Source: an uncultured Syntrophaceae bacterium
Lineage (GTDB): Bacteria; Desulfobacterota; Syntrophia; Syntrophales; UBA2192
Assembly: GCA_964628025.1 (NCBI GenBank)
Contig: CAZVLL010000005.1
Coordinates: 667 to 64,666, forward strand
Length of the DNA stretch: 64,000 nt
Direction: 5' to 3'
Shown: positions 2,831-17,974 of the stretch, in pieces
Numbering within the stretch: position 1 is the first letter of the stretch
Layout of the letters: each line of letters starts with the position of its first letter
The notes under the pieces: model-generated
What the model saw: the letters and a program-made list of their open reading frames with translations, nothing else
The model's database searches: none
Told to the model about the DNA's origin: nothing
Made by a program: the position numbers and the translations under genes

Positions 2831-3301
2831 ATGCGGGAGGCGCTGAAATTCGAAAAAACCTTCGATGTGGAGGGCGGGAGCTTTCAGAACGCGGGAAACG
2901 TATCGGGCCAGATTAAGAGCATCCTGAAAGAATTGGGCGTTTCGACCGACATCGTGCGGAGAGTCGCCATCATCTGCTACGAATCGGAGATCAACATCGT
3001 CTCCTATGCCAAAAAGGGCAAGATCTCCCTGGCCGTGACCGATGAGTCGGTGAAAATAACAACAAAGGACGAAGGGCCGGGAATCCCCGACATTGAGCTC
3101 GCCATGAAGGAAGGATACTCCACAGCAACAGCCGTTGTGAGGGAAATGGGGTTCGGTGCAGGCATGGGACTGGCGAACATCAAGAAATACTCCGATCATC
3201 TCATCATCACCTCCGAAGTGGGCATCGGGACGAGTGTGACGATGACGGTAATGAATTTTCAGAAGCTTCTTCATCCCGACCTTCCGCCGGTAACGATGTA
3301 A
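2831..3301 (+). CDS. GHKL/HATPase_c-type ATP-binding protein (anti-sigma-factor Ser/Thr kinase-like)
   Basis: 156-aa ORF beginning 3 nt after the previous stop. It carries DEGPGIPD and GFGAGMGLANIKK segments typical of the Bergerat ATP-binding fold of SpoIIAB/RsbW-like kinases. Confidence 0.6.
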   Translation: MREALKFEKTFDVEGGSFQNAGNVSGQIKSILKELGVSTDIVRRVAIICYESEINIVSYAKKGKISLAVTDESVKITTKDEGPGIPDIELAMKEGYSTATAVVREMGFGAGMGLANIKKYSDHLIITSEVGIGTSVTMTVMNFQKLLHPDLPPVTM

Positions 3302-3374
3302 TCAGGAAGGGACCGGGTCCCGCTGAAGGAACCGGGACAAGCACCCCGGCTGAACGAAACAGGAAGGATTGTAC

Positions 3375-3710
3375 ATGCAGATTGACGCTCTCGTTCGTGA
3401 ATTGAACCTCAAGGTCCGTTGCGCCGAGGGTCACCTCAAAAGGGATATCCGGGGGGGCTATGTGGGAGACCTCCTCAGCGACGTCATGGCCAACAGCAAG
3501 GAGGGCGATATCTGGATTACCCGCCAGGTGCACCAGAACATCGTCGCCGTGGCAAGCCTCAAGGACCTCGCGGGGATCATCCTCATCCAGGGCAGCGAAC
3601 CCGCACACGACACAGCCGCAAAGGCCAATATGGAGGGCATCCCCATCTTGGTCACGGATCTTCCGGCCTTCGAAATTGTGGGCAAAATATATGAATTGAT
3701 CAAGTCATGA
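3375..3710 (+). CDS. DRTGG-domain protein (second copy)
   Basis: ATG at 3375 lies 6 nt after AGGAAGGA; the track's TTG start at 3369 is less likely. GDLLSDVMANSKEGDIWITRQVHQNIVAVASL...IILIQG parallels the first DRTGG protein. Confidence 0.6.
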   Translation: MQIDALVRELNLKVRCAEGHLKRDIRGGYVGDLLSDVMANSKEGDIWITRQVHQNIVAVASLKDLAGIILIQGSEPAHDTAAKANMEGIPILVTDLPAFEIVGKIYELIKS

Positions 3711-3830: not shown

Positions 3831-4568
3831 ATGATCAGGGAGTTCCGTTGTGATTTTCACGTCCACACCTGCCTTTCGCCCTGTGCCGATCTCGACATGT
3901 ACCCTCGTGCGGTCGTCGCGATGTCGCTTGCGCGCCGCCTCGACATCATCGCCATCTGCGATCATAACGCATCCGAAAACGTCCCCTACGTCATCAAAGC
4001 CGCGGAAGGAACAGGGCTTACCGTCCTCCCTGGCATGGAGATCATGAGCAGCGAAGAGGTTCACATTCTCGCGCTCTTTGAAAAAACAGAGTACCTCCTG
4101 ACGCTGCAGGACCTCGTCTACCGGAACCTGCCGGGGATAAATGACGAGGAGATCTTTGGTTGCCAAGCCGTCGTCAATGAGCACGATGAGGTGGAAGGGT
4201 TGAGCGACCGGCTCCTCATCGGCGCGACACAGCTTCCCATTGAGAGGATCGTTACCGAGATTCACCGGTTGGGCGGGCTTGCCATCGCCGCCCACATCGA
4301 CCGGGAGAGTTTCGGCATTCTCGGACAGCTCGGGTTCATCCCCGACGGCCTCGATCTCGATGCCTTGGAGATCTCCCGCCGGACCGGGGTCGCCGCGGCG
4401 AGGCTCCGCTACCCCCAGCTTTCGCGATACGCGCTCCTCGAGAATTCCGATGCCCACGTCATCGCCGACGTGGGAAAAGGCATCTCTCGGGCTTTCCTGC
4501 AAGAGCCGACGCCGGCGGAGCTGAAGATGGCCTTTGAGAAAAAAGGCGGCCGCTACATCGTGGAGTGA
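3831..4568 (+). CDS. PHP-domain (polymerase/histidinol-phosphatase-like) metal-dependent phosphoesterase
   Basis: 245-aa ORF. CDFHVHTCLSPCAD...IIAICDHN...AAHIDRE matches the His/Asp metal-ligand pattern of the PHP fold. Confidence 0.7.
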   Translation: MIREFRCDFHVHTCLSPCADLDMYPRAVVAMSLARRLDIIAICDHNASENVPYVIKAAEGTGLTVLPGMEIMSSEEVHILALFEKTEYLLTLQDLVYRNLPGINDEEIFGCQAVVNEHDEVEGLSDRLLIGATQLPIERIVTEIHRLGGLAIAAHIDRESFGILGQLGFIPDGLDLDALEISRRTGVAAARLRYPQLSRYALLENSDAHVIADVGKGISRAFLQEPTPAELKMAFEKKGGRYIVE

Positions 4569-4572
4569 GCAC

Positions 4573-5121
4573 GTGCTGGAGCTGGCGCTTCACATCCTGG
4601 ACATCGTCGAGAACTCCGTCCGCGCCGGGGCGACCATCGTCCGTGTCCTCATCCGGGAATGCCGGTCGGAGGACCTCTTCCTGATGCGCATTACGGACAA
4701 CGGAAAGGGAATGACCCCCGAGGAACGCAGAAAAGCCCTGGACCCCTTTTACACGACAAAGACGGTCCGGCGGGTCGGCTTGGGTCTCCCCATGCTTGCC
4801 GACGCGGCGGCCAGGACGGGCGGAAAGATGACCCTGCGTTCTGAACCGGGCGCGGGCACGGTGGTCGAAGCCGTTTTCGGCTTGAGCCATATCGACCGGC
4901 AGCCGATGGGCAACATTACATCGACGCTGCTTACGATCCTCGTGGGCAACCCAGGGATCGATTTCACCTACAGTCACGAAGTGGACGGCAGGACGTACTT
5001 GCTGGACACGCGAGATATTAAAAGAGTTTTGGAGGATGTCCCGCTGAGTCACCCCGAAGTCACCGGCTTCATCCGTGAGCACATCACGGAGGGCCTGGGG
5101 GACGTCGGGGCGACGGCGTGA
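4573..5121 (+). CDS. GHKL/HATPase_c-type ATP-binding protein (second copy)
   Basis: In-frame GTG at 4573 lies just after the PHP stop; the track's ATG at 4534 would overlap the PHP gene. HILDIVENSVRAG...ITDNGKGM...GLGLPML are N-, G1- and G2-box-like motifs. Confidence 0.6.
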   Translation: MLELALHILDIVENSVRAGATIVRVLIRECRSEDLFLMRITDNGKGMTPEERRKALDPFYTTKTVRRVGLGLPMLADAAARTGGKMTLRSEPGAGTVVEAVFGLSHIDRQPMGNITSTLLTILVGNPGIDFTYSHEVDGRTYLLDTRDIKRVLEDVPLSHPEVTGFIREHITEGLGDVGATA

Positions 5122-5149: not shown

Positions 5150-5635
5150 ATGAAGAACGGTTCACTCAAAGAGTTCTCCGCCGAACAGGTGGCGAAATTG
5201 GACGAGATCATCGCCCGCTACAAGGGAAAGCCCGGCGGACTCATCCCCGTGCTGGAGGAAGCCCAGGTCATTCTGGAGTATCTGCCCGTCCCGGTTCAGA
5301 GGAGGATCGCCGAGGGGCTGAATCTCCCGCTGGCGCAGGTCTATGGCGTTGTCACATTCTATTCCCTGTTCACCATGAAGCCGCGAGGGCGCCACACGGT
5401 ACGGGTCTGCCTCGGGACGGCCTGCTATGTCCGGGGAGGCAAAGCCATCGCGGAGAATATCGCGAAAGAGTACAACGTCGAGGAGGGCGAGACGACTGTG
5501 GACCGGCGCTTCACCTACGAGACGATCCGCTGTCTCGGCGCCTGCGGTCTTGCGCCGGTCATCGTGGTGGATGAAAGCGTCCACGGCCGGATAAAAACGC
5601 AGAAGCTGAAGTCGATCATGGAAGAGTACAAATAA
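5150..5635 (+). CDS. NuoE/HoxE/HydC-like thioredoxin-fold [2Fe-2S] subunit
   Basis: ATG at 5150 follows GGAGAAAGG. GGLIPVLEEAQ...VCLGTACYVRG...IRCLGACGLAPV is the NuoE 24-kDa-subunit Cys pattern. Confidence 0.85.
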   Translation: MKNGSLKEFSAEQVAKLDEIIARYKGKPGGLIPVLEEAQVILEYLPVPVQRRIAEGLNLPLAQVYGVVTFYSLFTMKPRGRHTVRVCLGTACYVRGGKAIAENIAKEYNVEEGETTVDRRFTYETIRCLGACGLAPVIVVDESVHGRIKTQKLKSIMEEYK

Positions 5636-5688: not shown

Positions 5689-6072
5689 ATGTCGAAATTG
5701 AAGATCGAAGACCTGAAGAAGATCAAAGAGAAAGTCCATGCCCAGACGGCCCTTCGAGAGGGCGGGCAGCGGGCCAAGGTAACGGTCCACATGGGAACCT
5801 GCGGCATCGCCTCGGGCGCCCGCGAGGTGCTCGGCGCCCTCATGCGCGAGGTCGAAGAGTCGGCCGTGACGGACGTCATGGTCACCACCTCGGGCTGCAT
5901 GGGGCTTTGCAGTCGCGAGCCCCTGGTCACCATCGAGCTTGCGGGCAAAGAGCCCATCAAATACGAGAAGATGGACGAGAAGAAGATGCGCCAGGTATTC
6001 AAGCGCCACGTATTGGAAGGGGAGATCCAGACGCCTTTCGTGCTTGCGAAGGGAGCCGAGATCGTTCGCTAG
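5689..6072 (+). CDS. thioredoxin-like [2Fe-2S] ferredoxin (HndB-like)
   Basis: ATG at 5689 (MSKLKIEDLKKI...). VHMGTCGIASGA...TSGCMGLCSREP is the Cys pattern of (2Fe-2S) ferredoxin-domain proteins found in NADH-linked hydrogenase operons. Confidence 0.7.
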   Translation: MSKLKIEDLKKIKEKVHAQTALREGGQRAKVTVHMGTCGIASGAREVLGALMREVEESAVTDVMVTTSGCMGLCSREPLVTIELAGKEPIKYEKMDEKKMRQVFKRHVLEGEIQTPFVLAKGAEIVR

Positions 6073-6129
6073 GGGAGAGGGAAAACCCATTCCCTGCTGT
6101 TGAATTTTTCCAGGAAAGGATCCAGTTCA

Positions 6130-9100
6130 ATGAAAGTATTTCGATCGCATTTACTGGTCTGCGGAGGGACAGGCTGTCACGCAACCGGAAGCATCGCGGT
6201 CAAGAAAGCCCTTGTTGAAGAACTCAACAAGAAGGGCCTTGCCGAAGAGATCAAGGTTGTCGAGACGGGGTGCAACGGATTCTGCGCCATGGGCCCCATC
6301 ATGGTCGTTTACCCCGAAGGGATCGTCTACATGAACATTCAGACGGTCGATGTCCCCGTGCTCGTGGAAGAGCACTTTATCAAGGGACGCCCCGTCGAGA
6401 GACTGTTCTACAAGGAGCCGGGAAAAGAGGACCGGATCCCCTCGATGCAGGAGATCCCCTTCTTCGCGCTGCAGGACCTCCGCGTGCTCCGCAACCGCGG
6501 TCTCATCGACCCCGAGAACATCGAAGAGTACATCGCCCGGGACGGCTACGCCGGCATGGCCAAGGCGCTCACCGAGATGACGCCCGAGCAGATCGTCCAG
6601 GAAGTCCTCAAGTCAGGCCTGCGCGGCCGCGGGGGCGCCGGCTTCCCAACGGGACTCAAGTGGCAGTTCGCCCAGCGTTCGCCCGGGGACATCAAGTACG
6701 TCCTGTGTAACGCCGACGAAGGCGACCCCGGTGCCTTCATGGACCGCAGCGTCCTCGAAGCCGACCCACACGCGGTCCTCGAGGGGATGGTGATCGCTGC
6801 CAAGGCGATTGGTTCCGGGTTCGGCTACATCTACTGCCGCGCCGAGTACCCCCTTGCCATCCACCGTCTCAACGTGGCCCTCGGGCAGGCCCGCGAAATG
6901 GGTCTTCTCGGAAAGGACATCCTGGGAACGGGCTTCAATTTCGATATCGCGATCTACCAGGGCGCCGGCGCCTTCGTCTGCGGCGAGGAAACGGCGCTCA
7001 TGACCTCCATCGAGGGCAAGCGCGGCATGCCGCGCCCGCGGCCGCCCTTCCCTGCCGTGGCGGGCCTCTGGGCAAAACCCAGCGTGCTCAACAACGTGGA
7101 GACACTGGCCAACATCGGCCAGATCATGCTCCGCGGCGGTGAATGGTATGCCGGCGTCGGCACCGAGAAATCCAAGGGCACGAAAGTCTTCGCGCTCACG
7201 GGCGACGTGAACAATGTCGGTCTCGTGGAAGTGCCGATGGGAACCACGCTGGGAACGATCGTCTACGACATCGGCGGCGGCATTCCCGGCGGCAAGAAGT
7301 TCAAGGCCGCGCAGCTCGGCGGCCCCTCGGGCGGCTGCATCCCCGTCCAGCACCTCAACGCGGCCGTCGACTACGAAAAGGTTGCCGAACTGGGCGCCAT
7401 CATGGGCTCCGGCGGCCTCATCGTCATGAACGAAGACAAGTGCGCCGTCGACATGGCGCGCTTCTTCATGGATTTCTGCCAGGACGAGTCCTGCGGCAAG
7501 TGCATCCCCTGCCGTGAAGGGACGAAGCGCATGCTCGAGATCCTGACCAACATCTGCAAGGGCAAGGGCAAGGAAGGCGACATCGAGCTCCTGGAATCGA
7601 TGGCCATCGTCATCAAGGACGCATCGCTTTGCGGCCTCGGCCAGACGGCCCCGAACCCCGTGCTGTCGACCATCCGGTATTTCCGGGATGAATACGTGGA
7701 GCACATCCGCGACAAGAAGTGCCGCGCCGCCGTCTGCTCGGCCCTTTTCAAGTCACCCTGCCAGCACACCTGCCCCATCGGAATGGACATCCCGGCCTAC
7801 ACGGCGCTGATCCGCGACGACCGCCTGACGGACGCTTACTCCGTGCTTCTCAAGACGAACCCCTTCCCGTCGGCCTGCGGCCGGGTCTGCGACCACCAGT
7901 GCATGTCCAAGTGTCGCCGCGGCCTCTTGGACGAGCCGGTTTCCATCAAGTTCCTGAAACGCTACATCACCGACAACGCGCCGAGACCCGAGATCAAGCC
8001 TGTCCCGATGACCCGCAAGGAAAAAATCGCCGTGATCGGCGCGGGGCCCGCGGGACTCACCTGCGCACGGGATCTGGCGCTTCGCGGCTACGGTGTGAAG
8101 GTCTTCGAAGAGCTTCCCACCCCGGGCGGCATGCTCAGCTGGGGCATCCCCTCCTACCGCCTGCCGCGGGAGATCCTCGGCAAGGAAATCGACGACATCC
8201 GGAAGCTCGGCGTCGAGATCCAGTGCGGTGTCCGGGTGGGGTGTGACCTCCCCTGGGATGCCGTGAACAAGGATTTCGATATCGTCTACCTTGCGCCGGG
8301 CGCCCACAAGAGCCAGCGCATGGGTGTCGAGGGTGAGGACCTCAAGGGTGTCTGGGGCGGAGTCGAGTTCCTCCGCGACTACAACTTGAACGAGGCGGCC
8401 TGGAACGACGGCAAGAAATCGCTGGGCGCCAGGGTTGCCGTCATCGGCGGCGGAAACTCCGCCATCGATGCGGCTCGCACGGCACTCCGGCTCGGAGCCG
8501 AAGTAACCATCCTCTACCGGCGTCTCCGTGAGGATATGCCCGCCGCCGAGGAAGAAATCGTGGCGGCTGAGCATGAGGGGGTGAAGATCGAGTACCTCAT
8601 CGCTCCGCTTCGCATCGTCGGAACGGGCGGGCGCATCACGGGAATCGAGTGCTTGAGGCAAAAACTCGGCGACTTCGATTCGAGCGGGCGCAAACGGCCC
8701 GTGGCCATCAAGGGCTCCGAGTTCACCCTTGCCGTGGATACCATCATTGCCGCCATCGGCCAGACGCCGGATCTGACCTTCGTGCCGAAGGAAAGCGGTG
8801 TCTCCGTCAACAAGTGGTCCTGCTTCGACGTGGCCACCAACGGGTTCCGTTCCGGGACGACGAACCCGAAGTTCTTTGCCGGCGGCGACGCCGTCACGGG
8901 ACCCAGCACGGTCATCAAGGCCATTGCCGCGGGCCACGAGGCGGCCGATGACATCGACGCCGCCATCCGGAAGCGCAACGGCGAGCCGGCCTGGGTGCCC
9001 CCGACCGGGGAGGAGATCCAGATCCCCTTCGTCATCGACGAGGAAACGGAGGAATGCCCCATGGCCCACATGCCCGAACTGGAGGCCTCCTACCGGAAGG

Positions 9101-9189
9101 CAAACTTCCAGGAAGTCGAGCTTGGCTACGCCAGGGATCTCGCCGTGAAGGAGTCGACCCGCTGCCTGCGCTGTGACGTAGAGCTGTAA
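6130..9189 (+). CDS. NuoF/HoxF-like FMN/NADH subunit fused to a GltD/NfnB-like FAD/NADPH oxidoreductase module
   Basis: 1019 aa from ATG 6130. The N-terminal [2Fe-2S] domain has LLVCGGTGCHATG and CNGFCAMGP. The NuoF core has GLRGRGGAGFPTGLKW and ESCGKCIPCREG. From about nt 7730 there is a GltD-like part with CSALFKSPCQHTCP, ACGRVCDHQC, KIAVIGAGPAGLTCA and RVAVIGGGNSAIDAA. Confidence 0.85.
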   Translation: MKVFRSHLLVCGGTGCHATGSIAVKKALVEELNKKGLAEEIKVVETGCNGFCAMGPIMVVYPEGIVYMNIQTVDVPVLVEEHFIKGRPVERLFYKEPGKEDRIPSMQEIPFFALQDLRVLRNRGLIDPENIEEYIARDGYAGMAKALTEMTPEQIVQEVLKSGLRGRGGAGFPTGLKWQFAQRSPGDIKYVLCNADEGDPGAFMDRSVLEADPHAVLEGMVIAAKAIGSGFGYIYCRAEYPLAIHRLNVALGQAREMGLLGKDILGTGFNFDIAIYQGAGAFVCGEETALMTSIEGKRGMPRPRPPFPAVAGLWAKPSVLNNVETLANIGQIMLRGGEWYAGVGTEKSKGTKVFALTGDVNNVGLVEVPMGTTLGTIVYDIGGGIPGGKKFKAAQLGGPSGGCIPVQHLNAAVDYEKVAELGAIMGSGGLIVMNEDKCAVDMARFFMDFCQDESCGKCIPCREGTKRMLEILTNICKGKGKEGDIELLESMAIVIKDASLCGLGQTAPNPVLSTIRYFRDEYVEHIRDKKCRAAVCSALFKSPCQHTCPIGMDIPAYTALIRDDRLTDAYSVLLKTNPFPSACGRVCDHQCMSKCRRGLLDEPVSIKFLKRYITDNAPRPEIKPVPMTRKEKIAVIGAGPAGLTCARDLALRGYGVKVFEELPTPGGMLSWGIPSYRLPREILGKEIDDIRKLGVEIQCGVRVGCDLPWDAVNKDFDIVYLAPGAHKSQRMGVEGEDLKGVWGGVEFLRDYNLNEAAWNDGKKSLGARVAVIGGGNSAIDAARTALRLGAEVTILYRRLREDMPAAEEEIVAAEHEGVKIEYLIAPLRIVGTGGRITGIECLRQKLGDFDSSGRKRPVAIKGSEFTLAVDTIIAAIGQTPDLTFVPKESGVSVNKWSCFDVATNGFRSGTTNPKFFAGGDAVTGPSTVIKAIAAGHEAADDIDAAIRKRNGEPAWVPPTGEEIQIPFVIDEETEECPMAHMPELEASYRKANFQEVELGYARDLAVKESTRCLRCDVEL

Positions 9190-9226: not shown

Positions 9227-11011
9227 ATGGCAAAAATACGAGTTACCCTGAACGGCCGTGAGGTCCTTGCGCCGCTGGGCGTCACGATTCTCCAGGCCGC
9301 CAATGAGGCGGGCATCGAAATCCCGACGCTCTGTCACCATCGAGCGTTGGTGCCGATCGGCGCCTGCCGGATATGCGTCGTCGAAATCAAAGGACAGCGG
9401 AACCTCCAGGCGGCATGCGCGTTCCCGATTTCGGAAGGAATGGAAATCGAGACGGAGTCGCCGAAGGTGGTGGCCGCCCGGAAACTGATTCTCGACATGC
9501 TCTTTTCCGAGCGAAACCATTACTGTCCGTTCTGCGAGATCAGCGGCGACTGTGAACTGCAGAATCTCGGGTACCGCTACGGAATCGACCACTGGGTGTA
9601 CCCGACCTACACGCAGGCATTCCCGGTGGATGCCACGCGCAAGTACTTCGTCATGGAACAGAACCGCTGCGTGCTCTGCCAGCGATGCGCCCGCGCCTGC
9701 GGCGAGCTGGTGGCCAACCACACGCTGGGGCTGCGGGAGCGGGGCGCCGGATCCATGATCCACGCCGACGCCGCCGTGCCCTTCGGCGAATCGACCTGTA
9801 TCTCCTGCGGCACCTGCATGCAGGTCTGCCCCACAGGCTCTCTTGTCGACCGGCGAAGCTCCTTCATGGGCCGCGGCGACCAGACGCAGCGCGTCAAGAG
9901 CACCTGCAACAAGTGCAGCGTCGGATGCGGCACGGAGATCGTGACGCGGGGCGGAAACGTCCTCCGTATCGAGGGAGACTGGGATGCAGCGGTGAACGGA
10001 GGCCTGCTCTGCAAGCACGGCCGGTTCGACCCGCTCTACGATGATCGAAAGCGCATCACCCAGCCTCTGCTTCGCAGGAAAGGAAAGCTGGAACCGGTAA
10101 GCTGGAACGATGCCATGCGGGCGGTGGTCAAGCAGCTCGGTGACGCCGAGGCCAAGGAGGTCGGGGTGCTCGTTTCGAGCGACGCGACCAACGAAGCGCT
10201 GTACCTGGTGGATCAGCTGTTCCGGAAAGAACTCCGCACGAAAAATATCGGGATGCCGTTCGTGGCCGCTCCCGATCTGCTCGGCAAGAAACAGGGCACC
10301 TTAGACGATCTCGCCGGAAGCGACCTGATTCTTCTGGCCGGGGCCGACCCCGCCAAGGGTCAGCCTGTCGCGGCCTTCCGGGTCAAGCGCCTCGTAGACA
10401 AGGGAGCAAGGCTGGTCGTCGTCGACGACGGAGAAAACGGGCTCGCCCCCTTTGCCGAGACGGCCCTGAAGATGGCGGACATCGACAAGGCCGTTGAGAT
10501 GGCCGACCACACCGAGCATCCCGTCGTGCTTTACGGAACGGGCATTACCGACAAGGCAGCCAAGACCCTCAAGAAACTAGGAAAGAAAGCGCGCTTCGTC
10601 GCGCTCGAGCCGGGCATCAACACCCGGGCGGCCGTGGCATTTGGGTTGAACAACGGACTCAAGGCATCGACCGCCAAGGTCCTCTATGTACTCCTGGGCG
10701 AAAAGGATTTAGACGGCGGTGAGATGCTGACGCAAATCGGTGAGGATGCCTTCGTTATCGTGCAGGCCAGCTACGCGTCGCCGCTTCTGGACAAGGCGGA
10801 CGTGATCCTCCCCGTGGCGATCTGGTCGGAGCGTCCCGGATCGCTCATCAACACCGAGGGAGTTCTCCGGATGGCCAACCAGGCCGTGGATCCCGCGGGA
10901 GAGGCCAAGCCGGACTGGGAAATCCTCTCCCTGCTGGCCGACAAACTGGGCAAACATCTCGGCGCATCCTTCGCTGACATCTCGGCCCGCGCCGCCAAGG
11001 AACTTAAGTGA
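9227..11011 (+). CDS. NuoG/HoxU-like Fe-S subunit with C-terminal degenerate molybdopterin-oxidoreductase-like domain
   Basis: 594 aa. It carries an N-terminal [2Fe-2S] (LCHHRALVPIGACRICVVE), 4Fe-4S motifs (CVLCQRCARAC, CISCGTCMQVCP) and a MopB-type cluster (CNKCSVGCG...LCKHGRF). It lacks the CAR-L-U/C-H active-site motif present in the FdhA of this same window. Confidence 0.8.
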   Translation: MAKIRVTLNGREVLAPLGVTILQAANEAGIEIPTLCHHRALVPIGACRICVVEIKGQRNLQAACAFPISEGMEIETESPKVVAARKLILDMLFSERNHYCPFCEISGDCELQNLGYRYGIDHWVYPTYTQAFPVDATRKYFVMEQNRCVLCQRCARACGELVANHTLGLRERGAGSMIHADAAVPFGESTCISCGTCMQVCPTGSLVDRRSSFMGRGDQTQRVKSTCNKCSVGCGTEIVTRGGNVLRIEGDWDAAVNGGLLCKHGRFDPLYDDRKRITQPLLRRKGKLEPVSWNDAMRAVVKQLGDAEAKEVGVLVSSDATNEALYLVDQLFRKELRTKNIGMPFVAAPDLLGKKQGTLDDLAGSDLILLAGADPAKGQPVAAFRVKRLVDKGARLVVVDDGENGLAPFAETALKMADIDKAVEMADHTEHPVVLYGTGITDKAAKTLKKLGKKARFVALEPGINTRAAVAFGLNNGLKASTAKVLYVLLGEKDLDGGEMLTQIGEDAFVIVQASYASPLLDKADVILPVAIWSERPGSLINTEGVLRMANQAVDPAGEAKPDWEILSLLADKLGKHLGASFADISARAAKELK

Positions 11012-11025: not shown

Positions 11026-11571
11026 ATGTCAAAGATCAAGATCGCCACTGACTGGCTGGCCGGCTGCGCCGGATGCCACATGTCCCTTCTGGACATTGAC
11101 GACCGCATCCTCCCGCTGCTGGAGTTGGTGGAATTTACATCAAGCCCGGTGACGGACCTGAAGCACCCGCCGAAAGAAGGCGTGACCGTGGGAATCCTAG
11201 AGGGCGCCATCTGCAATTCGCACAACATCGAGGTGGCCAAACAGATGCGCGAACGCTGCCAGATCCTCATCGCCATCGGCGACTGCGCCACCTTTGGCGG
11301 AGTCCCGGCTATGCGCAACCTCTGCGGCACGCAGGAAGCCCTGAAGCGCGCGTACCTGGAAGCGGAAAGCAATGTGGGCGGCCTGATCCCCGACTCCCCG
11401 GAACTCGGGATACCCCTCGACGAGGTCGTCGGCATCGACAAGGTGGTGAAGGTCGATCTGTTCATCCCCGGCTGCCCCCCGAGCGCCGATGCGCTGTTCT
11501 ATGCGCTCTCGGAACTGCTCGCCGGGCGTACGCCCATCGTTCTGCCGCCCCAATATTTCAAGTACGACTAG
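11026..11571 (+). CDS. [NiFe]-hydrogenase small subunit, cytoplasmic group-3 type
   Basis: ATG at 11026 follows AAAGGAGAC. WLAGCAGCHMS...IGDCATFGG...FIPGCPP are the proximal-cluster Cys motifs of short, signal-peptide-less group-3 small subunits. Confidence 0.8.
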   Translation: MSKIKIATDWLAGCAGCHMSLLDIDDRILPLLELVEFTSSPVTDLKHPPKEGVTVGILEGAICNSHNIEVAKQMRERCQILIAIGDCATFGGVPAMRNLCGTQEALKRAYLEAESNVGGLIPDSPELGIPLDEVVGIDKVVKVDLFIPGCPPSADALFYALSELLAGRTPIVLPPQYFKYD

Positions 11572-11583: not shown

Positions 11584-13014
11584 ATGAGCGCTCGCAAGAT
11601 AACCATCGAACCCGTGACGAGAATCGAAGGCCACGGGCGGGTCACGATTCATCTGAACGAACAGGGGGATGTCGATCAGACCTTCTTCCATGTGGACGAG
11701 TTCCGCGGTCTGGAGAAATTTTCCGAGGGGCGCCCCTATCTCGAAATGCCCCAGATCACCCAGCGCATCTGCGGCATCTGCCCCGTCAGCCACCACCTGG
11801 CAGCCGCCAAGGCCTGCGACGGCGTGGCACGCGTGGAGCCCACCCGGCCGGCAACGCTTTTGCGCGAGCTGATCCACATGGGCCAGTTCATCCAGTCCCA
11901 CGGGATGCATTTCTTCCACCTGGCCGCGCCGGATCTTCTCCTGGGCTTTGACGCCGACCCGGCGACACGCAACGTCTTCGGAATCATCAAGGCCAACCCG
12001 GAGCTGGCCGTCAAGGCCGTGCACCTTCGCCGTTTCGGACAGCAGATCATTTCGCGGCTCGGGGGCGGCAAACGCGTCCATCCCAATCTCTGCGTCCCCG
12101 GCGGGGTCAACGCCCCTCTCACCTCTGAGGACCGCGACGCCATCGCCGCCGAGCTCGACGGCATGACCGAGATCGGAAAGGTCGCACTCAGCATCGCGCG
12201 GGGCTGGCTGGAGTCCAACCGGGAGCTCGCCGATACCTTTGCCGCGTTCCCGTCCAACTACATGGGGCTCGTCGACGAGGAAGGGGGCCTGCAGCTTTAC
12301 GACGGAGAGATCCGCATCAAAGACGCCGAGGGGAAATACCTCGCCCAGTTCAGGACGGATGCCTACCTGTCCCACATCGCCGAACACGTGGAGCCCTGGT
12401 CATTCCTCAAGCACCCCTACTACCGCAAGCAGGGATTCCCGCAGGGCTTCTACCGCGTCGGCCCGCTGGGGCGGATGAACGTGATCGACAAGATCGGCAC
12501 ACCTCTGGCCAACGAGGAGTTCAAGCAATTCAGGACGCTCAACGGCGGCAGGCCCGTCGAAGGGTCTCTTTACTACCACTACGCCCGGATGATCGAGCTG
12601 CTCTACAGCCTCGAGCGCGTCGGCCAGCTGCTGGACGACCCGGATATCCTCTCCAGGGATGTCCGCAATTATCCGAAGCTGCAGCTTCCCGGACAGGGAG
12701 TCGGCGTGATTGAAGCGCCCCGGGGGACCCTGATCCACGACTACAGCACCGATGAAAACGGCATTCTGACGAGGGTGAACCTCATCGTGGCCACGGGCAA
12801 CAACAACTGGGCCATGCACACGGCGTCGGGCTCCGTGGCAAAGGCCTTCGTAAAGGGCAACTCGCTCACGGAAGGCATGCTCAACCGCGTCGAGGCGGCC
12901 ATCCGCTGCTACGATCCGTGCCTGTCCTGCGCGACCCATGCCATAGGCAAGATGCCGCTGGACGTCACGCTCATCGCTGCCGACGGGACCGTGCTGGACC
13001 GCGTCTCACGCTAG
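11584..13014 (+). CDS. [NiFe]-hydrogenase large subunit, group 3
   Basis: 476 aa. It has the N-terminal RICGICPVSH and C-terminal DPCLSCATH Ni-Fe ligand motifs, followed by a C-terminal extension for endopeptidase processing. Confidence 0.9.
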   Translation: MSARKITIEPVTRIEGHGRVTIHLNEQGDVDQTFFHVDEFRGLEKFSEGRPYLEMPQITQRICGICPVSHHLAAAKACDGVARVEPTRPATLLRELIHMGQFIQSHGMHFFHLAAPDLLLGFDADPATRNVFGIIKANPELAVKAVHLRRFGQQIISRLGGGKRVHPNLCVPGGVNAPLTSEDRDAIAAELDGMTEIGKVALSIARGWLESNRELADTFAAFPSNYMGLVDEEGGLQLYDGEIRIKDAEGKYLAQFRTDAYLSHIAEHVEPWSFLKHPYYRKQGFPQGFYRVGPLGRMNVIDKIGTPLANEEFKQFRTLNGGRPVEGSLYYHYARMIELLYSLERVGQLLDDPDILSRDVRNYPKLQLPGQGVGVIEAPRGTLIHDYSTDENGILTRVNLIVATGNNNWAMHTASGSVAKAFVKGNSLTEGMLNRVEAAIRCYDPCLSCATHAIGKMPLDVTLIAADGTVLDRVSR

Positions 13015-13041: not shown

Positions 13042-13076
13042 AAGCGGGTGAGCGCAACGCGTTCACCCGCTTCTTA
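13042..13076 (+). terminator. hairpin between large subunit and protease genes (possible attenuator/partial terminator)
   Basis: The stem AAGCGGGTGA...TCACCCGCTT is followed by a short T-containing tail. The T-tract is weak. Confidence 0.3.
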
Positions 13077-13101: not shown

Positions 13102-13587
13102 ATGAAACGGACACTGGTGATAGGGTTCGGAAACGTGGACCGCGCTGACGACGGCGTCGCCTTCCACATCGTCAATGCCTTCCGGCATCAGCTGGGGCAG
13201 GAACCGCTCAAAGAAGACAAAACGGGCCTCGAGGAACTCGGCGCAGCGGTGGACTCCGTCTTCATCGGCCAGCTCGTGCCGGAGATGATCGATCTGCTTG
13301 ACGACTACGAACGGGTCGTTTTCGTGGATGCCCATGTCGATCCGGCCATGAACGATCTTTACTGCGCATCCGTCTCGCCCGACGAGGCCGGCCTGACCTT
13401 CACCCACCACATGAGCCCGGCCACGCTTCTTGCCTTTTTCAAGGCCCTCCATGGCCGCGACATTGATGGCCACCTCGTGTCCATCCGCGGTCGCGATTTC
13501 GACTTCCACCGCAATCTCTCCGCTGACACGATTGCGCTCATAGAGCCGGCTGTCGAACGGATCCTGGAACTCACCTCTGCCTCATGA
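13102..13587 (+). CDS. hydrogenase maturation endopeptidase (HoxW/HybD family)
   Basis: 161 aa. The N-terminal LVIGFGNVDRADDGVAFHIV matches the GxGNxxxxDDGxG family signature. It sits downstream of the large subunit. Confidence 0.8.
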   Translation: MKRTLVIGFGNVDRADDGVAFHIVNAFRHQLGQEPLKEDKTGLEELGAAVDSVFIGQLVPEMIDLLDDYERVVFVDAHVDPAMNDLYCASVSPDEAGLTFTHHMSPATLLAFFKALHGRDIDGHLVSIRGRDFDFHRNLSADTIALIEPAVERILELTSAS

Positions 13588-13805
13588 CTGCGGCCGCCCT
13601 TTATCTTGTGTGAATTTATTACCCATCCGCCCGAGAATTATCTTCTCTCTGTCCCTGCGTTGCTTCCTTGATCTTGATTTTGAACGTCGAGTCGTAGACC
13701 GTGTACGTGCCTGCAGCTCCGGCCATGACAAGCGTGGCCGTCCGTATAGGAAGACAGATAAAGAGGGCAGAGCCGGCAACGGCTCTGCCCTGACAGGCAC
13801 GGTTC

Positions 13806-13844
13806 GACGGGCACTCTTCTCAAGGACGGGCACTCTTCTCAAGG
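13806..13844. repeat. perfect 19-bp tandem duplication (ACGGGCACTCTTCTCAAGG x2) at the 3' end of the Hcp-like gene
   Basis: Units at 13807-13825 and 13826-13844 are identical. The stop codon of the minus-strand gene (13820-13822) lies inside the first unit. Confidence 0.9.
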
Positions 13845-14383
13845 GCAGTCGGCCCGCCCGTCCATATCCATTCGGCGCCCTCGTAGGTGAACGAGACCTG
13901 TTCGTAGGTCTCCAGTTTCACTTGATCCGGAATTCTCACGTTCGGCATGACGGTTTTGATCGAAACGATTCGTGCGCTTGTGAGCTTTACCGTATAATTT
14001 TGAACTTCTGTGCCTCCGCCACCGGCCGCACCGCCTACATTCGGAGCCCAGAATTTAATGGTCGCGTCCGGGATGAGCTCGTTATTGAGCAACATCGTCC
14101 GGAGCACCGGCGACGATTTGTCGATCTCCTTCGTGATGGTGATCTGACCGGAACGCAGGCGCCCCGTCGTCATGCCCGTTGCTGCATCTGTTGCGATCCT
14201 CGACTCCTGATCGAATGCGATAACCCCGATGGAGCCCTCTCTTCCCTTCTGCGTGACACCGCCATAAACAGGCCCCGTTTTCTGCCCTTTGACGTAAAGG
14301 TTTGCCATGATTGCAGCGCTGGCAAGGGCTGTAAACACGAACGTAAATGTGACGACGAACACGACAATGGCTTTTTTCCGCAT
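13820..14383 (-). CDS. Hcp (TssD)-like protein carrying an N-terminal Sec-type signal peptide
   Basis: 187 aa. It is collinear with enterobacterial Hcp/TssD as recalled from memory: REGSIGVIAF, TGMTTGR...ITITKEIDKSSPVL, KFW, YTVKLTSARIVSIKTVMPN, ETYEQVSFTYEGAEWIW. The N-terminus MRKKAIVVFVVTFTFVFTALASAAIMA looks like a signal peptide. Confidence 0.7.
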   Translation of the reverse strand: MRKKAIVVFVVTFTFVFTALASAAIMANLYVKGQKTGPVYGGVTQKGREGSIGVIAFDQESRIATDAATGMTTGRLRSGQITITKEIDKSSPVLRTMLLNNELIPDATIKFWAPNVGGAAGGGGTEVQNYTVKLTSARIVSIKTVMPNVRIPDQVKLETYEQVSFTYEGAEWIWTGGPTALEKSARP

Positions 14384-14490
14384 GCAGGCCTCCTTTGCCT
14401 ATGAATTTGCATGATGAATGCTGTCTTATCCGTTCCGCTTCTTCAGGGTGCCGGTATATCCCTCTCTCTGCAGAAGTGATTGCTTAGGAA

Positions 14491-15747
14491 TCAGAACAGT
14501 CCCTTGAGTTTGTTCAGTGTCCCCTTGATGGTCTCGGTGGCCCCGCCGCTCTCCTCACTGGCCGGTTGATCGCCCCGCTTCTGCCGGCTTTCTTTTGACC
14601 TGCCGCCTTCCTTCATTTCCTCCATTCCAAGCGGGAGCATTCCGGTAGACTTGTTCCTCAGCTTCATGGCCCAGATATAGTCATGAGGCTTGGTCGAGTC
14701 TTTTGGCTTTGGCGGATAGGCGATGTTCAACTCATCGCCGTAGCCGATGAACTGCAGCACTGCCCCTTTTCCGTCCTTGAATATGCCCCTGGGTACCGAA
14801 CAGCTTGTTACCTCGGGCCCCATAACCACCTTCTCCCTGATGAACCTGCTGACATCTGCCGGGGAGAGATAGTTTATCAGGCCGAAGCCTGGATCCTGAA
14901 CCTCGCTGGACGACCAGATGATGGTCTCGCCGGTCTGCTCGTTATGGCCCATCGCCACGGAAAAATAGCCGATTGCCGTGGGGATCTTCTTCCACTGGAA
15001 TGCGATACTTTCTGTCAACCCTCCCTTGACGGCGGTAAATTCAACAGGCGCCATGAAGTCATGCCTCTCGCCAACGGCGAATTTAATATCCGGGGTGTAA
15101 TTGCCGTGGATGAAGTGGCTTCCCAGTAAGGAACTGCTTTTCGGCACACTCTGCTGATCGCTCTTGTTGGGCCATTCCGAATAGGCCCATCCTGTCCTCG
15201 GGGATGGTGGAACCTGACCCGACCCGGAGCGGCCCGCCATGGCCTTTCCGAATTCGATCATGCTCATCTTCTCGGTGTCAAGGACCCTCGGTTGTCCCGG
15301 TCGCACCGTCTCGCTGCACCCCCAGTAAAAGAGCATGCGCACCTTGGGTTTTTCCACCTCTCGGTCTGACCCTTCTCCACTGCGCACCGGCTTTTCACGC
15401 TCGGGAATCAGAAGAGGCAGGGTCTTGCCCATATCCAGGCCGGGAGGGATGTCGTGGGTTGCTTCCGGGGCTGCCGGGGGAGTGCCCGGTGCACTGAGTT
15501 GCAAAAGGAGGCTTCTCTTCGGCCCCATTCCCCCGGGCATCATTTTTCCCATGAGCATTCCCTGCATTCCCGTCATTTCTCCCTGCGGCATGCCTGGAAT
15601 ACTTGTATTTTGTATTGCAACACTCACCCAGTACTGGGTTACAGGTTTTTTTTGCTCTTTCTCCGCCGCGCTCACAAGCGAAACAGAAAAGAAAAGAATC
15701 ATTGCCAGAATCGTGCAGCACGATTTTGAGAGAAGAGTCATGTCCAC
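14491..15747 (-). CDS. secreted hypothetical protein with Met/Gly/Pro-rich N-terminal region
   Basis: 418 aa. It has a signal peptide (ILAMILFFSVSLVSAAEK), then IPGMPQGEMTGMQGMLMGKMMPGGMGP, and a basic/acidic tail. No family was recognised. Confidence 0.6.
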   Translation of the reverse strand: MDMTLLSKSCCTILAMILFFSVSLVSAAEKEQKKPVTQYWVSVAIQNTSIPGMPQGEMTGMQGMLMGKMMPGGMGPKRSLLLQLSAPGTPPAAPEATHDIPPGLDMGKTLPLLIPEREKPVRSGEGSDREVEKPKVRMLFYWGCSETVRPGQPRVLDTEKMSMIEFGKAMAGRSGSGQVPPSPRTGWAYSEWPNKSDQQSVPKSSSLLGSHFIHGNYTPDIKFAVGERHDFMAPVEFTAVKGGLTESIAFQWKKIPTAIGYFSVAMGHNEQTGETIIWSSSEVQDPGFGLINYLSPADVSRFIREKVVMGPEVTSCSVPRGIFKDGKGAVLQFIGYGDELNIAYPPKPKDSTKPHDYIWAMKLRNKSTGMLPLGMEEMKEGGRSKESRQKRGDQPASEESGGATETIKGTLNKLKGLF

Positions 15748-15880
15748 TTCACCTCCATGAGTAGTCTTTGAATCCCTGACCGGTTATGACGCAAAGGATG
15801 CAACCGTGAACTGCGGCAGAACAGGATTTTCTTGTTTCTCGTTTGCTCGTCTGAGACGATGAACACTCTTTTAATCGACC

Positions 15881-15909
15881 TTGACACGCAATTTTCTTTA
15901 TTCTATCTT
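15881..15909 (+). promoter_or_regulatory. candidate sigma70-type promoter of the + strand secreted-protein operon
   Basis: TTGACA (15881-15886), a 17-nt spacer, then TATCTT (15904-15909), within the AT-rich divergent intergenic region. Confidence 0.3.
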
Positions 15910-15973
15910 TACCTCCAAAACAAGACAATAATAATAAAGCATACACGTCAAGTCTGCTGAAAACAGGATTCGC

Positions 15974-17152
15974 ATGAGGCATCCACATTCTCGTTTGCGT
16001 CGGTTTTCTTGTTCAATTTTCATGTTGCTCCTGAGTGTCGGTCTGCTTTCACATCCTGTGTCGACAACAGATGTCAGGGCACAGTGGCCGCCTCCCCAGG
16101 ACGCTGCTGCACAAAATCCCCAGGATGTTCCCTCTCAACCGTATCCATCCGGTGAGACCGTCCCTCCCTCCATGCAGTCTCCCACGCAGTCTCAGTCGCC
16201 GATCCAATCGCCACTGAAACAGCAAAGCCAGAAAAGAGGGCAGTCACAGCAACAACAACAGGGCATGCCTTCCGCACCGGGATACCCGCAGGCTTCCCCC
16301 GGTTATCCGCAAGCGGCCCCGATGCAGGGCCCTCAGCAACCGCAGACGAGCTACCCTCAGGGAGCACAAGGGGGAAGTCAGTGGGGCCAGCAGCAACAGT
16401 CGCCTTACCCCCAGGGACCGGCCCAGGGCGGTCAACAGCAGCAGATGATTTACCCGCAGGGAGCAACTGTGCCGGGGAATGTTCCCATGCAGACCGACGC
16501 CTGGGGTCAACCCGTTCCGACGCAGGGTGGCCAGCAGCAGACGGGCTACCCGCAAGGAGTGCAAGGAGGTCAGTGGGGCCAGCAGCAGCAACAGCCGCCT
16601 TACCCCCAGGGACCGGCCCAGGGCGGTCAACAGCAGCAGATGATTTACCCGCAGGGAGCAACTGTGCCGGGGAATGTTCCCATGCAGACCGACGCCTGGG
16701 GTCAACCCGTTCCGATGCAGGGTGGCCAGGTTCCACAGCCCGGGGTTTATCCGCAAGCACAGCCTGGACAGCCGGGGATGATGCCACAGCCCGCCATGCC
16801 TGCCGCCGCACCCCAGGGCTGCAATGTCCAACTCAGCCAGGACCGTCAGACCGTGATTTTGAAGGACTCTGCGGGTCAGGACAGAGATCACATATCGCTG
16901 GGTGAGGACCGCGTTCAGAAGATTTTCAAATCAAAAGAAGGCAGCTGGTCTTTCGTCGTTTTCAAGGTCAGGCGCGTGGAGCAATTCGGAGCTTTTGCCA
17001 TCGACCTGTCCAGTTGCCAGGCGCAGGACCTCGTCGAGATATCGGCGGTGCCGACAGATGCGGCCTTCGAGGGAGAGGACATTCTCCTGACTTTTTCGGG
17101 AGGGAAGACAACACGGCTCAAGCTCGTGAACAGAGTCATCGTCGAGAAGTAG
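15974..17152 (+). CDS. secreted Q/P/G/Y-rich (prion-like, low-complexity) repeat protein with a globular C-terminal domain
   Basis: 392 aa. A signal-like N-terminus (FMLLLSVGLLSHPVS) is followed by about 240 aa of YPQG/QGGQQQQ-type repeats. An ordinary-composition C-terminal domain begins at CNVQLSQDRQTVILKD. Confidence 0.7.
   Translation: MRHPHSRLRRFSCSIFMLLLSVGLLSHPVSTTDVRAQWPPPQDAAAQNPQDVPSQPYPSGETVPPSMQSPTQSQSPIQSPLKQQSQKRGQSQQQQQGMPSAPGYPQASPGYPQAAPMQGPQQPQTSYPQGAQGGSQWGQQQQSPYPQGPAQGGQQQQMIYPQGATVPGNVPMQTDAWGQPVPTQGGQQQTGYPQGVQGGQWGQQQQQPPYPQGPAQGGQQQQMIYPQGATVPGNVPMQTDAWGQPVPMQGGQVPQPGVYPQAQPGQPGMMPQPAMPAAAPQGCNVQLSQDRQTVILKDSAGQDRDHISLGEDRVQKIFKSKEGSWSFVVFKVRRVEQFGAFAIDLSSCQAQDLVEISAVPTDAAFEGEDILLTFSGGKTTRLKLVNRVIVEK
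16381..16729 (+). repeat. tandem duplication (period ~192-195 bp) inside the Q-rich gene
   Basis: 16402-16520 is identical to 16597-16715 (119 nt). After a single mismatch, identity resumes through GCAGGGTGGCCAG. The block encodes PYPQGPAQGGQQQQMIYPQGATVPGNVPMQTDAWGQPVP twice. Confidence 0.9.
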
Positions 17153-17213
17153 CCGTGATTCGTGATCGGTGGCAATCAAAACGCACAAGCATCGATGGAG
17201 GAGTAACGATTCA

Positions 17214-17972: not shown

Positions 17973-17974
17973 GC

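Follow-up and report, generated by a model that had tools for sequence, protein, structure and literature searches.

The hydrogenase locus and its fused gene

The gene described here lies at positions 6130–9189, forward strand, of a 64,000-nucleotide stretch of DNA from an uncultured Syntrophaceae bacterium of the Syntrophales (GenBank assembly GCA_964628025.1, contig CAZVLL010000005.1, positions 667 to 64,666 of the forward strand). The whole stretch that was analysed is referred to as the window. The gene belongs to a [NiFe]-hydrogenase operon, and the subunit that it encodes consists of an N-terminal thioredoxin-like [2Fe-2S] domain, a NuoF/HydB core and a complete GltD-like module. The open reading frame (ORF) listing of the window includes a single open frame at 6100–9189 (forward strand) with no stop inside. 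An ATG at 6130, with AGGAAAGGA 8 nt ahead of it, gives a product of 1019 aa with the N-terminus MKVFRSHLL, and this start and length agree with those of homologues. The flavin sites in the following list are for flavin mononucleotide (FMN) and flavin adenine dinucleotide (FAD).

6130–9189, forward strand: BfuB/HydB::GltD dual-flavin subunit, 1019 aa (ORF, Pfam, alignments to 7t2r_B and to Stn and Nfn proteins, AlphaFold2 model, Foldseek)
6130–6360, forward strand: thioredoxin-like [2Fe-2S] domain (B5 site) with ligands C11, C16, C48 and C52 (Pfam residues 5–77, Cys positions)
6607–7704, forward strand: NuoF core with the FMN/NADH site, SLBB and the B1 [4Fe-4S] cluster (Pfam; 819 bits to 7t2r_B)
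7441–7737, forward strand: B2 site with ligands C438, C476, H525, C531 and C536 (residue-by-residue alignment to 7t2r_B 401–542)
7681–7775, forward strand: fusion junction F518...H525...C531...C536 and, after 7 residues, C544-x3-C548-P (junction DNA pattern)
7720–7980, forward strand: Fer4_20 (DPD domain II) segment in place of B3/B4 (Pfam Fer4_20; 9bov_A alignment)
8023–8934, forward strand: FAD fold GAGPAG and NADPH fold GGGNSA (GxGxxA) followed by YRR, plus R677 (Pfam Pyr_redox_2; Stn, NfnL and NfnB alignments)
9070–9189, forward strand: C-terminal tail with C1012-x2-C1015 (HMMER second domains to 4ylf_B 8–43 and 5jca_L 11–48)

Six Pfam domains were found in the 1019-aa protein, namely 2Fe-2S_thioredx (residues 5–77), Complex1_51K (160–329, E 3e-45), SLBB (353–402), NADH_4Fe-4S (441–525, E 2e-36), Fer4_20 (531–617, E 7e-24) and Pyr_redox_2 (632–935, E 6e-28). 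They match the three modules in one unbroken 1019-codon ORF that had been described in an initial annotation of this DNA, and their borders agree with the junction it had placed at about nucleotide 7730. The motifs that it had picked out (GLRGRGGAGFPTGLKW, ESCGKCIPCREG, CSALFKSPCQHTCP, ACGRVCDHQC, KIAVIGAGPAGLTCA and RVAVIGGGNSAIDAA) are all present in the translation. With Fer4_20 and both the FAD and NADPH Rossmann folds, the GltD-like module appears complete and, judged by its motifs, cofactor-competent.

A bifurcating-type core in the N-terminal half

Residues 1–542 of the fused protein align with residues 1–542 (of 597) of chain B of 7T2R, the HydB subunit of the electron-bifurcating NiFe-HydABCSL hydrogenase of Acetomicrobium mobile (A. 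mobile; PDB 7T2R/7T30; Feng et al. 2022), with a score of 819 bits. The FMN/NADH site of the NuoF core includes the motifs RGRGGAGFPTG, NADEGDPGA and CGEETAL, and the B1 [4Fe-4S] ligands are C455, C458, C461 and C501. The B2 ligands correspond one-to-one, and with the same numbering, to the residues that Schut et al. (2022) give for HydB of A. mobile.

The homology to HydB stops at residue 542. Thus, the GltD module stands where HydB has its C-terminal ferredoxin-like domain (B3/B4). Neither a CxxCxxCxxxCP motif nor a Fer4-type Pfam match was found in the whole 1019-aa protein, and C536, the last B2 ligand, is only 8 residues from C544, the first Fer4_20 Cys. The other sequence hallmarks of the Bfu family are present: the Nuo51 FMN, SLBB and B1 domains, the B2 His/Cys site, B5, and, in the same operon, a BfuC with C1 and a BfuA. 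The C-terminal ferredoxin-type B3/B4 domain is absent, and Fer4_20, with two [4Fe-4S] clusters of a different fold, is found instead.

An Stn-type GltD module in the C-terminal half

The Fer4_20 segment contains C544, C548, C583, C587, C591 and C595, and the Fer4_20-type cysteines number eight when C1012 and C1015 of the tail are counted. The best match of residues 541–1016 is the module in the A subunit of Stn/NfnABC (9bov_A residues 101–567, 381 bits), and HMMER scores against NfnB and NfnL were 333 and 328 bits, respectively. The final ~40 residues (MPELEASYRKANFQEVELGYARDLAVKESTRCLRCD) are homologous to the N-terminal part of NfnB/NfnL; hence the module shows the circular permutation known from Stn. 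Diverse fusions all keep C1012 and C1015, which should provide the last two ligands of the Fer4_20 clusters.

The NADPH fold carries GxGxxA, the signature taken for NADP(H) binding. K610 of the fused protein occupies the position of StnC K170, the Lys that ligates the proximal cluster of the Stn FAD module, a module that does not bifurcate; NfnB carries Glu there. Among 90 near-full-length fusions this position is Lys in 77, His in 13 and Glu in none. R677, equivalent to StnC R239 and NfnB R201, is invariant. By these residues the module looks Stn-type and resembles a plain NADP(H) port.

In about 90 near-full-length fusions, whatever their partner, the FMN motif, B1, the Fer4_20 cysteines, both nucleotide motifs of the module (FAD and NADPH) and the RR pair are kept with few exceptions, and a loss of FAD/NADPH-binding residues, against which the initial annotation had cautioned, was not seen in this alignment. 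A number of distant fusions (P0124, P0127, P0135, P0141, P0150, P0165, P0185 and locus L067; L numbers denote loci in other genomes) have degenerate FMN/NADH motifs and B1 ligands and an intact GltD part, and in these lineages FAD/NADPH may be the sole nucleotide site. Some distant fusion lineages have an additional Cys-rich C-terminal extension.

An AlphaFold2 model of the whole subunit, built from a 12-sequence alignment, had a mean predicted local distance difference test score (pLDDT) of 83.6 and a predicted template modelling score (pTM) of 0.61. In Foldseek searches with this model, the N-terminal half matched BfuB chains with template modelling scores (TMt) of 0.83–0.97, and the C-terminal half matched the module in the A subunit of Stn/NfnABC as well as NfnL/NfnB (TMt 0.77–0.79 for the latter). 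No solved chain found by Foldseek spans both halves.

The fusion is genuine and under purifying selection

A homologue search over a collection of 5.8 billion proteins, clustered at the 90% identity level, revealed more than 120 clusters of full-length homologues of 1017–1025 aa with 77–95% identity, from independent assemblies and with both halves in all. The named ones belong to Syntrophales and include proteins of Syntrophus gentianae (S. gentianae; 87% identity) and Smithellaceae (78%). One identical fused protein was read on 23 contigs, and the index of the collection lists it in 46 blocks. About a dozen more full-length fusion clusters, 36–54% identical, were found in a library of 50%-identity representatives.

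The ratio of nonsynonymous to synonymous substitution rates (dN/dS), calculated for the window against four relatives, is 0.06–0.18 for the [2Fe-2S] domain, NuoF core, Fer4_20, FAD/NADPH part and tail, and 0.10–0.13 for the FAD/NADPH part itself. Purifying selection thus acts on all modules of the gene (dN/dS ~0.1). A stop or frameshift at the NuoF/GltD junction in independent assemblies, which the initial annotation had regarded as fatal to its reading, did not appear, all of the more than 120 clusters being full length with both halves. An artefact in which nuoF and gltD were joined by mis-assembly or sequencing error is ruled out by these independent clusters and the identical proteins on 23 contigs, by the contiguous frame over the junction in ~115 species genomes among the matches listed (see below), and by the short spacing, 8 residues, from the last ligand of B2 to the first Cys of Fer4_20.

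The operon encodes a NiFe-HydABCSL-type hydrogenase

The genes of the operon are all on the forward strand with short or overlapping gaps; 37 nt separate the stop of the fused gene (9189) from the start of hydA (9227).

5150–5635, forward strand: HydC/BfuC, NuoE-like, C1 [2Fe-2S] motif CLGTAC...CLGAC (Pfam 2Fe-2S_thioredx full length, E 1e-48; NCBIfam HoxE/NuoE)
5689–6072, forward strand: BfuD/HndB-like thioredoxin-like protein, 127 aa (weak Pfam 2Fe-2S_thioredx; 127-aa orthologues in L001, L004 and L005)
9227–11011, forward strand: HydA/BfuA, NuoG-like Fe-S subunit, 594 aa (Pfam; best PDB match 7t2r_A, 308 bits)
11026–11571, forward strand: HydS, [NiFe] small subunit, 181 aa (Pfam Oxidored_q6; NCBIfam VhuG/FrhG-like)
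11584–13014, forward strand: HydL, group-3 [NiFe] large subunit (PDB matches, L1/L2 motifs)
13102–13587, forward strand: hydrogenase maturation endopeptidase (NCBIfam TIGR00072, 51.1 bits against a cutoff of 47.45)

Pfam and NCBIfam assignments agree with the NuoE-like, NuoG-like and group-3 small and large subunits given as neighbours of the fused gene in the initial annotation. The motifs in HydA correspond to one [2Fe-2S] cluster, one [4Fe-4S] cluster with a His ligand, two further [4Fe-4S] clusters and a Molybdop_Fe4S4 cluster. It lacks an H-cluster, as no Fe_hyd_lg_C domain was found by Pfam in HydA and no Fe_hyd_lg_C gene in the operon, and no Pyr_redox or Fer4_20 domain was found in HydA by Pfam. 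HydS has few cysteines, which suggests that the proximal cluster is its only one. In HydL, RICGICPVSHH (L1) and DPCLSCATH (L2) are found together with a cleavable extension at the C-terminus. The BfuD-like protein has three cysteines only, and whether it holds a cluster is uncertain; the name BfuD was given to such a small thioredoxin-like protein in mSystems in 2024 (PMC11406978).

In comparisons with sequences from PDB, the closest solved relative of every hydrogenase subunit was A. mobile NiFe-HydABCSL (7T2R). HydL scored 565 bits against 7t2r_D, 414 against Hox 5xf9_D, 406 against MvhA and ~109 against sulfhydrogenase. As the 7T2R scores lie above those of Hox, the hydrogenase is assigned to the NiFe-HydABCSL (Bfu) type, and a Hox-type (group 3d) identity was rejected. 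The L1 and L2 motifs, the small subunit, a HydA without the H-cluster and the maturation protease are all present, as in NiFe-HydABCSL. No NfnA/NfnS- or PyrK-like domain was found by Pfam or NCBIfam among the operon genes scanned.

A cassette of four genes precedes hydC.

2831–3301, forward strand: HATPase_c_2 kinase-like protein, first gene of the cassette (Pfam HATPase_c/HATPase_c_2; the cassette also precedes the operon in L004 and L005)
3369–3710, forward strand: DRTGG-domain protein (Pfam DRTGG; syntenic in L004 and L005)
3831–4568, forward strand: PHP-domain protein (Pfam PHP; 245-aa orthologue at the same place in L001, L004 and L005)
4573–5121, forward strand: histidine-kinase-like ATPase (HATPase_c) adjoining hydC upstream (Pfam E 2e-15; 182-aa orthologues in L001, L004 and L005)

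The HATPase_c_2 protein is probably a regulator. The start of the 4573–5121 ORF was chosen to fit the 182-aa length of its homologues.

Between the hydL stop and the protease gene is a hairpin (13042–13072, forward strand) with a 14-bp stem, 9 G-C pairs and a weak T tract, which may be an attenuator or an mRNA-stabilising element. Consensus scans of the window showed no enrichment over shuffles. An ORF of 264 aa at 13610–14404 (forward strand) was judged probably non-coding; it matches nothing in Pfam or NCBIfam, and its composition is rich in Arg and Cys and resembles low-complexity sequence. Synteny with the 93%-identical locus L003 stops past the protease gene, and two 418-aa ORFs of equal length there are unrelated.

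The core is combined with different catalytic partners

In Syntrophales, the upstream cassette and BfuC-BfuD-BfuB::GltD are followed by varying catalytic partners, including formate dehydrogenase (Fdh) with selenocysteine (Sec).

NiFe HydA-S-L and protease after the core: the window, L003 (93%) and L005 (81%)
[FeFe] HydA, then NiFe HydA-S-L, after the core: L001 (S. gentianae)
[FeFe] HydA after the core: L013 and L076
Sec-split FdhA after the core: L004, L032 and L052
No A-type partner adjoining the core: L086 and L103

The BfuC/BfuD/BfuB::GltD set therefore appears to be a portable module. The S. gentianae locus (13156–19166) is a hybrid FeFe/NiFe operon, in which a 608-aa [FeFe] HydA and NiFe HydA-S-L stand behind one fused BfuB and are followed by hydF; upstream are a PAS-containing, sensory [FeFe]-hydrogenase-like gene and a SpoIIE phosphatase gene. 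In L086 (2052–6023) and L103 (2359–6363), BfuC-BfuD-BfuB::GltD is followed by DUF554/FMN_red genes in one and an ATP-binding cassette (ABC) transporter in the other. These partner-less operons are consistent with a core that serves partners encoded elsewhere.

The window itself includes a second gene of a partner type.

42049–44772, forward strand: selenocysteine FdhA with a NuoG-like N-terminus, 907 codons (Pfam; in-frame TGA at 43141 in HCARL-U-HS)

This FdhA is 68% identical to the FdhA directly after the fused BfuB in the Smithellaceae locus L004. Since no second NuoE/NuoF was found within the 64-kb window, it may share the BfuC/D/B::GltD core as an alternative partner, a link that is speculative. 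A major facilitator superfamily (MFS) transporter gene (44849–46084, reverse strand) adjoins fdhA.

For the wider distribution, a degenerate DNA pattern over the junction was searched in one genome per GTDB species and gave at least 120 loci. The pattern has one match in the window and none in shuffles. The matches were sorted into fusions and non-fusions by local tblastn; partners were typed in 8-kb blocks, which were too short for this purpose in 46 loci. Among the matches listed, 115 are contiguous HydB::GltD fusions, three have a gap between the halves and two are non-fusions. Hosts of the fusions among these matches belong to Chloroflexota, Bacteroidota, Planctomycetota, Verrucomicrobiota, Spirochaetota, Bacillota, Acidobacteriota and Desulfobacterota, and further to Armatimonadota, Omnitrophota, Atribacterota, Actinomycetota, Alphaproteobacteria, a Loki archaeon and others. 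The partners found in the 8-kb blocks are as follows.

[FeFe] HydA: at least 28 loci
Fdh: at least 12 loci
GltB-like 'Glu_synthase' protein after a short BfuA: at least 12 loci
[NiFe]: at least 9–10 loci

NuoF::GltD fusions thus do co-occur with NiFe subunits in related genomes, a point that the initial annotation had marked for checking: they do so in L003, L005 and L001, and the junction search gave at least 9–10 loci with [NiFe] partners. Long-HydA [NiFe] operons like that of the window were found in Anaerolineae (L066) and Acidobacteria (L098), and a HydA match alone suggests the same type in Caldilineaceae (L104).

Hox-like operons with a short HoxU and a HoxF-like::GltD fusion occur in Bryobacterales (L074, L088 and L122), Alphaproteobacteria (L091 and L041) and Anaerolineaceae (L011). 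The order is a short HoxU-like gene, then a HoxY-like gene and, where the block extends far enough, a HoxH-like gene, and in several of these operons only two of the four N-terminal B5 cysteines align.

At the GltB-type loci (L021, L022, L028, L036, L039, L045, L093, L096, L100, L111, L116 and L119), the fused BfuB::GltD is followed by a BfuA-like protein of ~250 aa (Fer2_4 + Fer4_7) and a GltB-like FMN-domain protein of ~527 aa (e.g. L036, 3354–5717). In L117, glutamine synthetase is encoded beside BfuC/BfuB::GltD, and a short BfuA-like gene continues past the end of the block. These loci point to a glutamate-synthase-like enzyme linked to NuoEF, and perhaps to where the fusion came from. The 64-kb window showed no GltB-like gene.

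Proposed function

In the structural model of Bfu enzymes, the bifurcation site is the 'flavobicluster' B1-FMN-C1, and the low-potential electron passes from the mobile C-terminal domain of BfuC (C1) via B3/B4 to ferredoxin, which docks between that domain and the ferredoxin-like domain of BfuB. Replacement of B3/B4, the ferredoxin-docking domain, makes coupling to ferredoxin less likely, and the ferredoxin bifurcation or confurcation offered as an option in the initial annotation loses ground accordingly. The reading that we favour, at about an even chance, is that gene 6130–9189 encodes the B subunit of a Bfu-family H2:NAD(H)/NADP(H) hydrogenase in which NADP(H) would stand in ferredoxin's place.

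To the observed anatomy, ligand conservation, B3/B4 replacement and modular contexts we would add the following substrates, coupling and direction, which we infer for the window enzyme. In a cytoplasmic enzyme of NiFe-HydABCSL type, electrons would move reversibly from HydL through HydS and the HydA clusters to B1 and FMN, where NAD(H) would react. A second branch, which in canonical enzymes goes via B3/B4 to ferredoxin, would here start at the mobile C1 of HydC and reach FAD and NADP(H) by way of the pair of Fer4_20 clusters. The net reaction would be 2 H2 + NAD+ + NADP+ ↔ NADH + NADPH + 2 H+.

The potential of the H+/H2 couple is −414 mV at 1 bar and rises up to about −300 mV at 10 Pa. Physiological potentials are taken in the literature as about −280 mV for NADH and −380 mV for NADPH, and syntrophic catabolism of fatty and aromatic acids produces little or no reduced ferredoxin. 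In a syntroph at 1–100 Pa H2, oxidation of the more-reducing NADPH pool together with NADH could pull NADH-dependent H2 formation without reduced ferredoxin. A wider proposal, which we put forward tentatively and consider possible rather than probable, is that the core is a ferredoxin-independent, obligately coupled NADH + NADPH confurcating/bifurcating module, with NADP(H) instead of ferredoxin as the low-potential partner of the flavobicluster, that is swapped among [NiFe], [FeFe] and Sec-Fdh partners (in the window perhaps also the unlinked FdhA) and sets the H2/formate threshold from both pools. Such a module would represent a new class of reaction in the Bfu family and a natural experiment on the B3/B4-ferredoxin branch.

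Several points weigh against the proposed H2:NAD(H)/NADP(H) enzyme. The NAD+/NADH and NADP+/NADPH couples share one standard potential, and a core of bifurcating type would be needed thermodynamically only if the in-vivo ratios of the two pools differed strongly. The proposal also presupposes a source of NADPH in the host, and the proposed substrates and coupling draw on homology. In the AlphaFold2 model, pLDDT is below 50 for residues 592–603 and for the tail 967–1019, and the model neither supports nor contradicts closure of the Fer4_20 clusters by C1012/C1015. At least 12 loci pair the fused subunit with a GltB-like protein, where a classical role in glutamate synthase is possible, in which case genomic context would change the function of the fused subunit. 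The same pair of clusters passes electrons on to ferredoxin in NfnB, and ferredoxin could still dock at the Fer4_20 clusters here; the authors of PMC11406978 favoured a possible second bifurcating FAD centre.

That last view amounts to two bifurcation centres in one enzyme: the GltD FAD would be NfnB-like, ferredoxin would dock near Fer4_20, and the complex would combine hydrogenase and Nfn activities (H2, NAD, NADP and ferredoxin). The initial annotation had likewise considered coupling of H2 to both NAD(H) and NADP(H), possibly with ferredoxin. The two [4Fe-4S] clusters of NfnB/NfnL, to which the module is homologous (333 and 328 bits), pass a low-potential electron to ferredoxin, R677 (NfnB R201) is invariant, and B2, B5 and C1, typical of bifurcating BfuBC cores, are kept. 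However, the proximal ligand is Lys or His, as in non-bifurcating StnC, and never Glu; the module is nearer to Stn than to NfnB; no NfnA/NfnS-like acceptor of the high-potential FAD electron is present in the operon, and B3/B4, the known ferredoxin-docking domain, is absent. We regard two centres as unlikely.

Uncoupled dual specificity is equally unlikely in our estimate. FMN/NADH and FAD/NADPH would then be independent ports on one Fe-S wire, with H2 formed from or reducing each nucleotide by itself and no obligatory coupling or role in energy coupling, which would suit two intact nucleotide sites, the equal standard potentials of the nucleotides and the non-bifurcating NADH-dependent hydrogenases that Syntrophus aciditrophicus and Syntrophomonas wolfei are known to use. 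Yet the characterised non-bifurcating homologues lost B2–B5, whereas the window protein keeps B2 and B5, and HydC keeps C1. The module also sits exactly on the gated C1 branch, not on the A-subunit wire as in Stn.

A GltD module with no role in NADP(H) turnover, either a structural or vestigial leftover of an ancestral NuoEF-linked glutamate synthase or a port to another acceptor such as polysulfide (as in SudA), is much less probable still. The partners of the GltD family are diverse, and the GltB-like Glu_synthase partner at 12 or more loci, with glutamine synthetase near one locus, would fit such a role. Against it stand the dN/dS of 0.10–0.13 in the FAD/NADPH part, the retention of FAD GxGxxG, NADPH GxGxxA, RR and the cluster cysteines in about 90 fusions with any partner, and a window without a GltB-like gene.

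Enzymes of the Bfu type (HydABC, NiFe-HydABCSL, Stn and bifurcating Fdh) play a key part in the energy metabolism of anaerobes, and how they bifurcate electrons is still debated. Here, a domain has been swapped at the ferredoxin branch with the rest of the core kept, with four kinds of partner and in at least 115 species loci. If the proposed H2:NAD(H)/NADP(H) reaction is correct, it would be a new Bfu coupling reaction, of H2 or formate with NAD and NADP, and a possible explanation for NADH-dependent production of H2 or formate in syntrophs with little reduced ferredoxin. The fused enzymes would further be a tractable variant for testing the gating model by structural work. The fused proteins are currently annotated as 'NuoF', 'HndC' or 'FAD-dependent oxidoreductase'.

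Other genes in the window

The region 50957–59403, with genes for Prim-Pol, a phage capsid and a phage integrase and a lower GC content of 0.50–0.59, looks like an integrated phage-like element. Metabolic genes at 31422–34369, 38051–39769, 48405–49340 and 23123–24193 encode two biotin-carboxylase paralogues in tandem, a prismane (hybrid-cluster) protein, MTHFR and an Oxidored_FMN protein of the Old Yellow Enzyme type, and form a general metabolic context of an anaerobe.

Comparison with known systems

The initial annotation had seen a merger of Hox or NiFe-HydABCSL with the Sporomusa-type transhydrogenase. The modules are as it stated, but GltD replaces B3/B4 rather than being added to a complete HydB. 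Of the two hydrogenases, NiFe-HydABCSL is the nearest (565 bits) and Hox is farther (414 bits).

Five homologous subunits and the order A-S-L after B and C are common to the window operon and A. mobile NiFe-HydABCSL, as are the FMN site, B1, the positions of the B2 ligands, the B5 domain and C1. The B3/B4 domain of A. mobile HydB (~543–597) is swapped in the window protein for a GltD module of ~480 residues with FAD and NADPH sites, and the window adds the small BfuD and the upstream regulatory cassette.

Hox (group 3d, PDB 5XF9) has in common with the window a NuoE/F/G-like diaphorase and group-3 [NiFe] small and large subunits. HoxF, however, is without B2–B5 and HoxU is ~240 aa, whereas the window has a HydA of 594 aa and a B/C core of bifurcating type.

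Stn/NfnABC (PDB 8OH5, 9BOV and 9N5U) likewise combines a BfuBC-type core with a GltD-like NADPH/FAD module, and the two modules are circularly permuted alike, with CxxC behind the module, and share GxGxxA and a Lys that ligates the proximal cluster. The likeness to Stn drawn in the initial annotation holds for the type of module but not for its place. The module of Stn is an insertion in the A subunit, where mid-potential electrons enter, and the Stn BfuB retains B3/B4 for ferredoxin; in the window the module lies on the B subunit in place of B3/B4, opposite to its place in Stn along the electron path, and the A subunit connects to the [NiFe] site.

In NfnAB/NfnSL (PDB 4YLF and 5JCA), the NfnB/NfnL subunit has a homologous fold that likewise contains FAD, two [4Fe-4S] clusters and a site for NADPH. 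In contrast to NfnAB/NfnSL, the window operon has no NfnA/NfnS partner, the proximal ligand is Lys and not Glu, and the N-terminal CxxC segment of NfnB/NfnL is found at the C-terminus.

In the survey of the Bfu family by Schut et al. (2022), the definition of BfuB includes a C-terminal 4Fe-4S ferredoxin-type domain (IPR017896), and the fused variant is not mentioned. From this definition, InterPro-based surveys that require the ferredoxin-type domain probably miss such proteins. Papers on deep-sea Chloroflexi, Dehalobacteriia and Hakuba Actinobacteria report NuoF and GltD as separate proteins only. In full-text literature, outside which most subscription-journal papers lie, we found no biochemical or structural study of the fused enzyme and no description of [NiFe]-, Fdh- or GltB-linked fused forms, and full-text literature held nothing specific on a NiFe-NuoF-GltD enzyme of Syntrophus or Smithella.

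The fused subunit itself has been described in silico, in the 2024 mSystems paper on Hydrogenedentota (PMC11406978), as the 'sub-type I BfuB' of [FeFe] hydrogenases, in which B3/B4 gives way to DPD_II (two [4Fe-4S] clusters) and a C-terminal FAD/NAD(P) domain. Both BfuD and the homologue from S. gentianae, which shares 87% identity with the window protein, are named in that paper. The enzyme type had been taken as uncharacterised in the initial annotation, which agrees with the lack of biochemistry in the literature covered. The BfuB variant is the same in the window and in the sub-type I BfuABC of Hydrogenedentota and relatives; the partner there is a group A3 [FeFe] HydA, and here a NuoG-like HydA with [NiFe] subunits, and the paper describes no [NiFe], Fdh or GltB-like contexts. 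By sequence, the window enzyme is thus a [NiFe] version of the dual-flavin BfuB enzymes, with a fused subunit that is widespread and was already noted in 2024.

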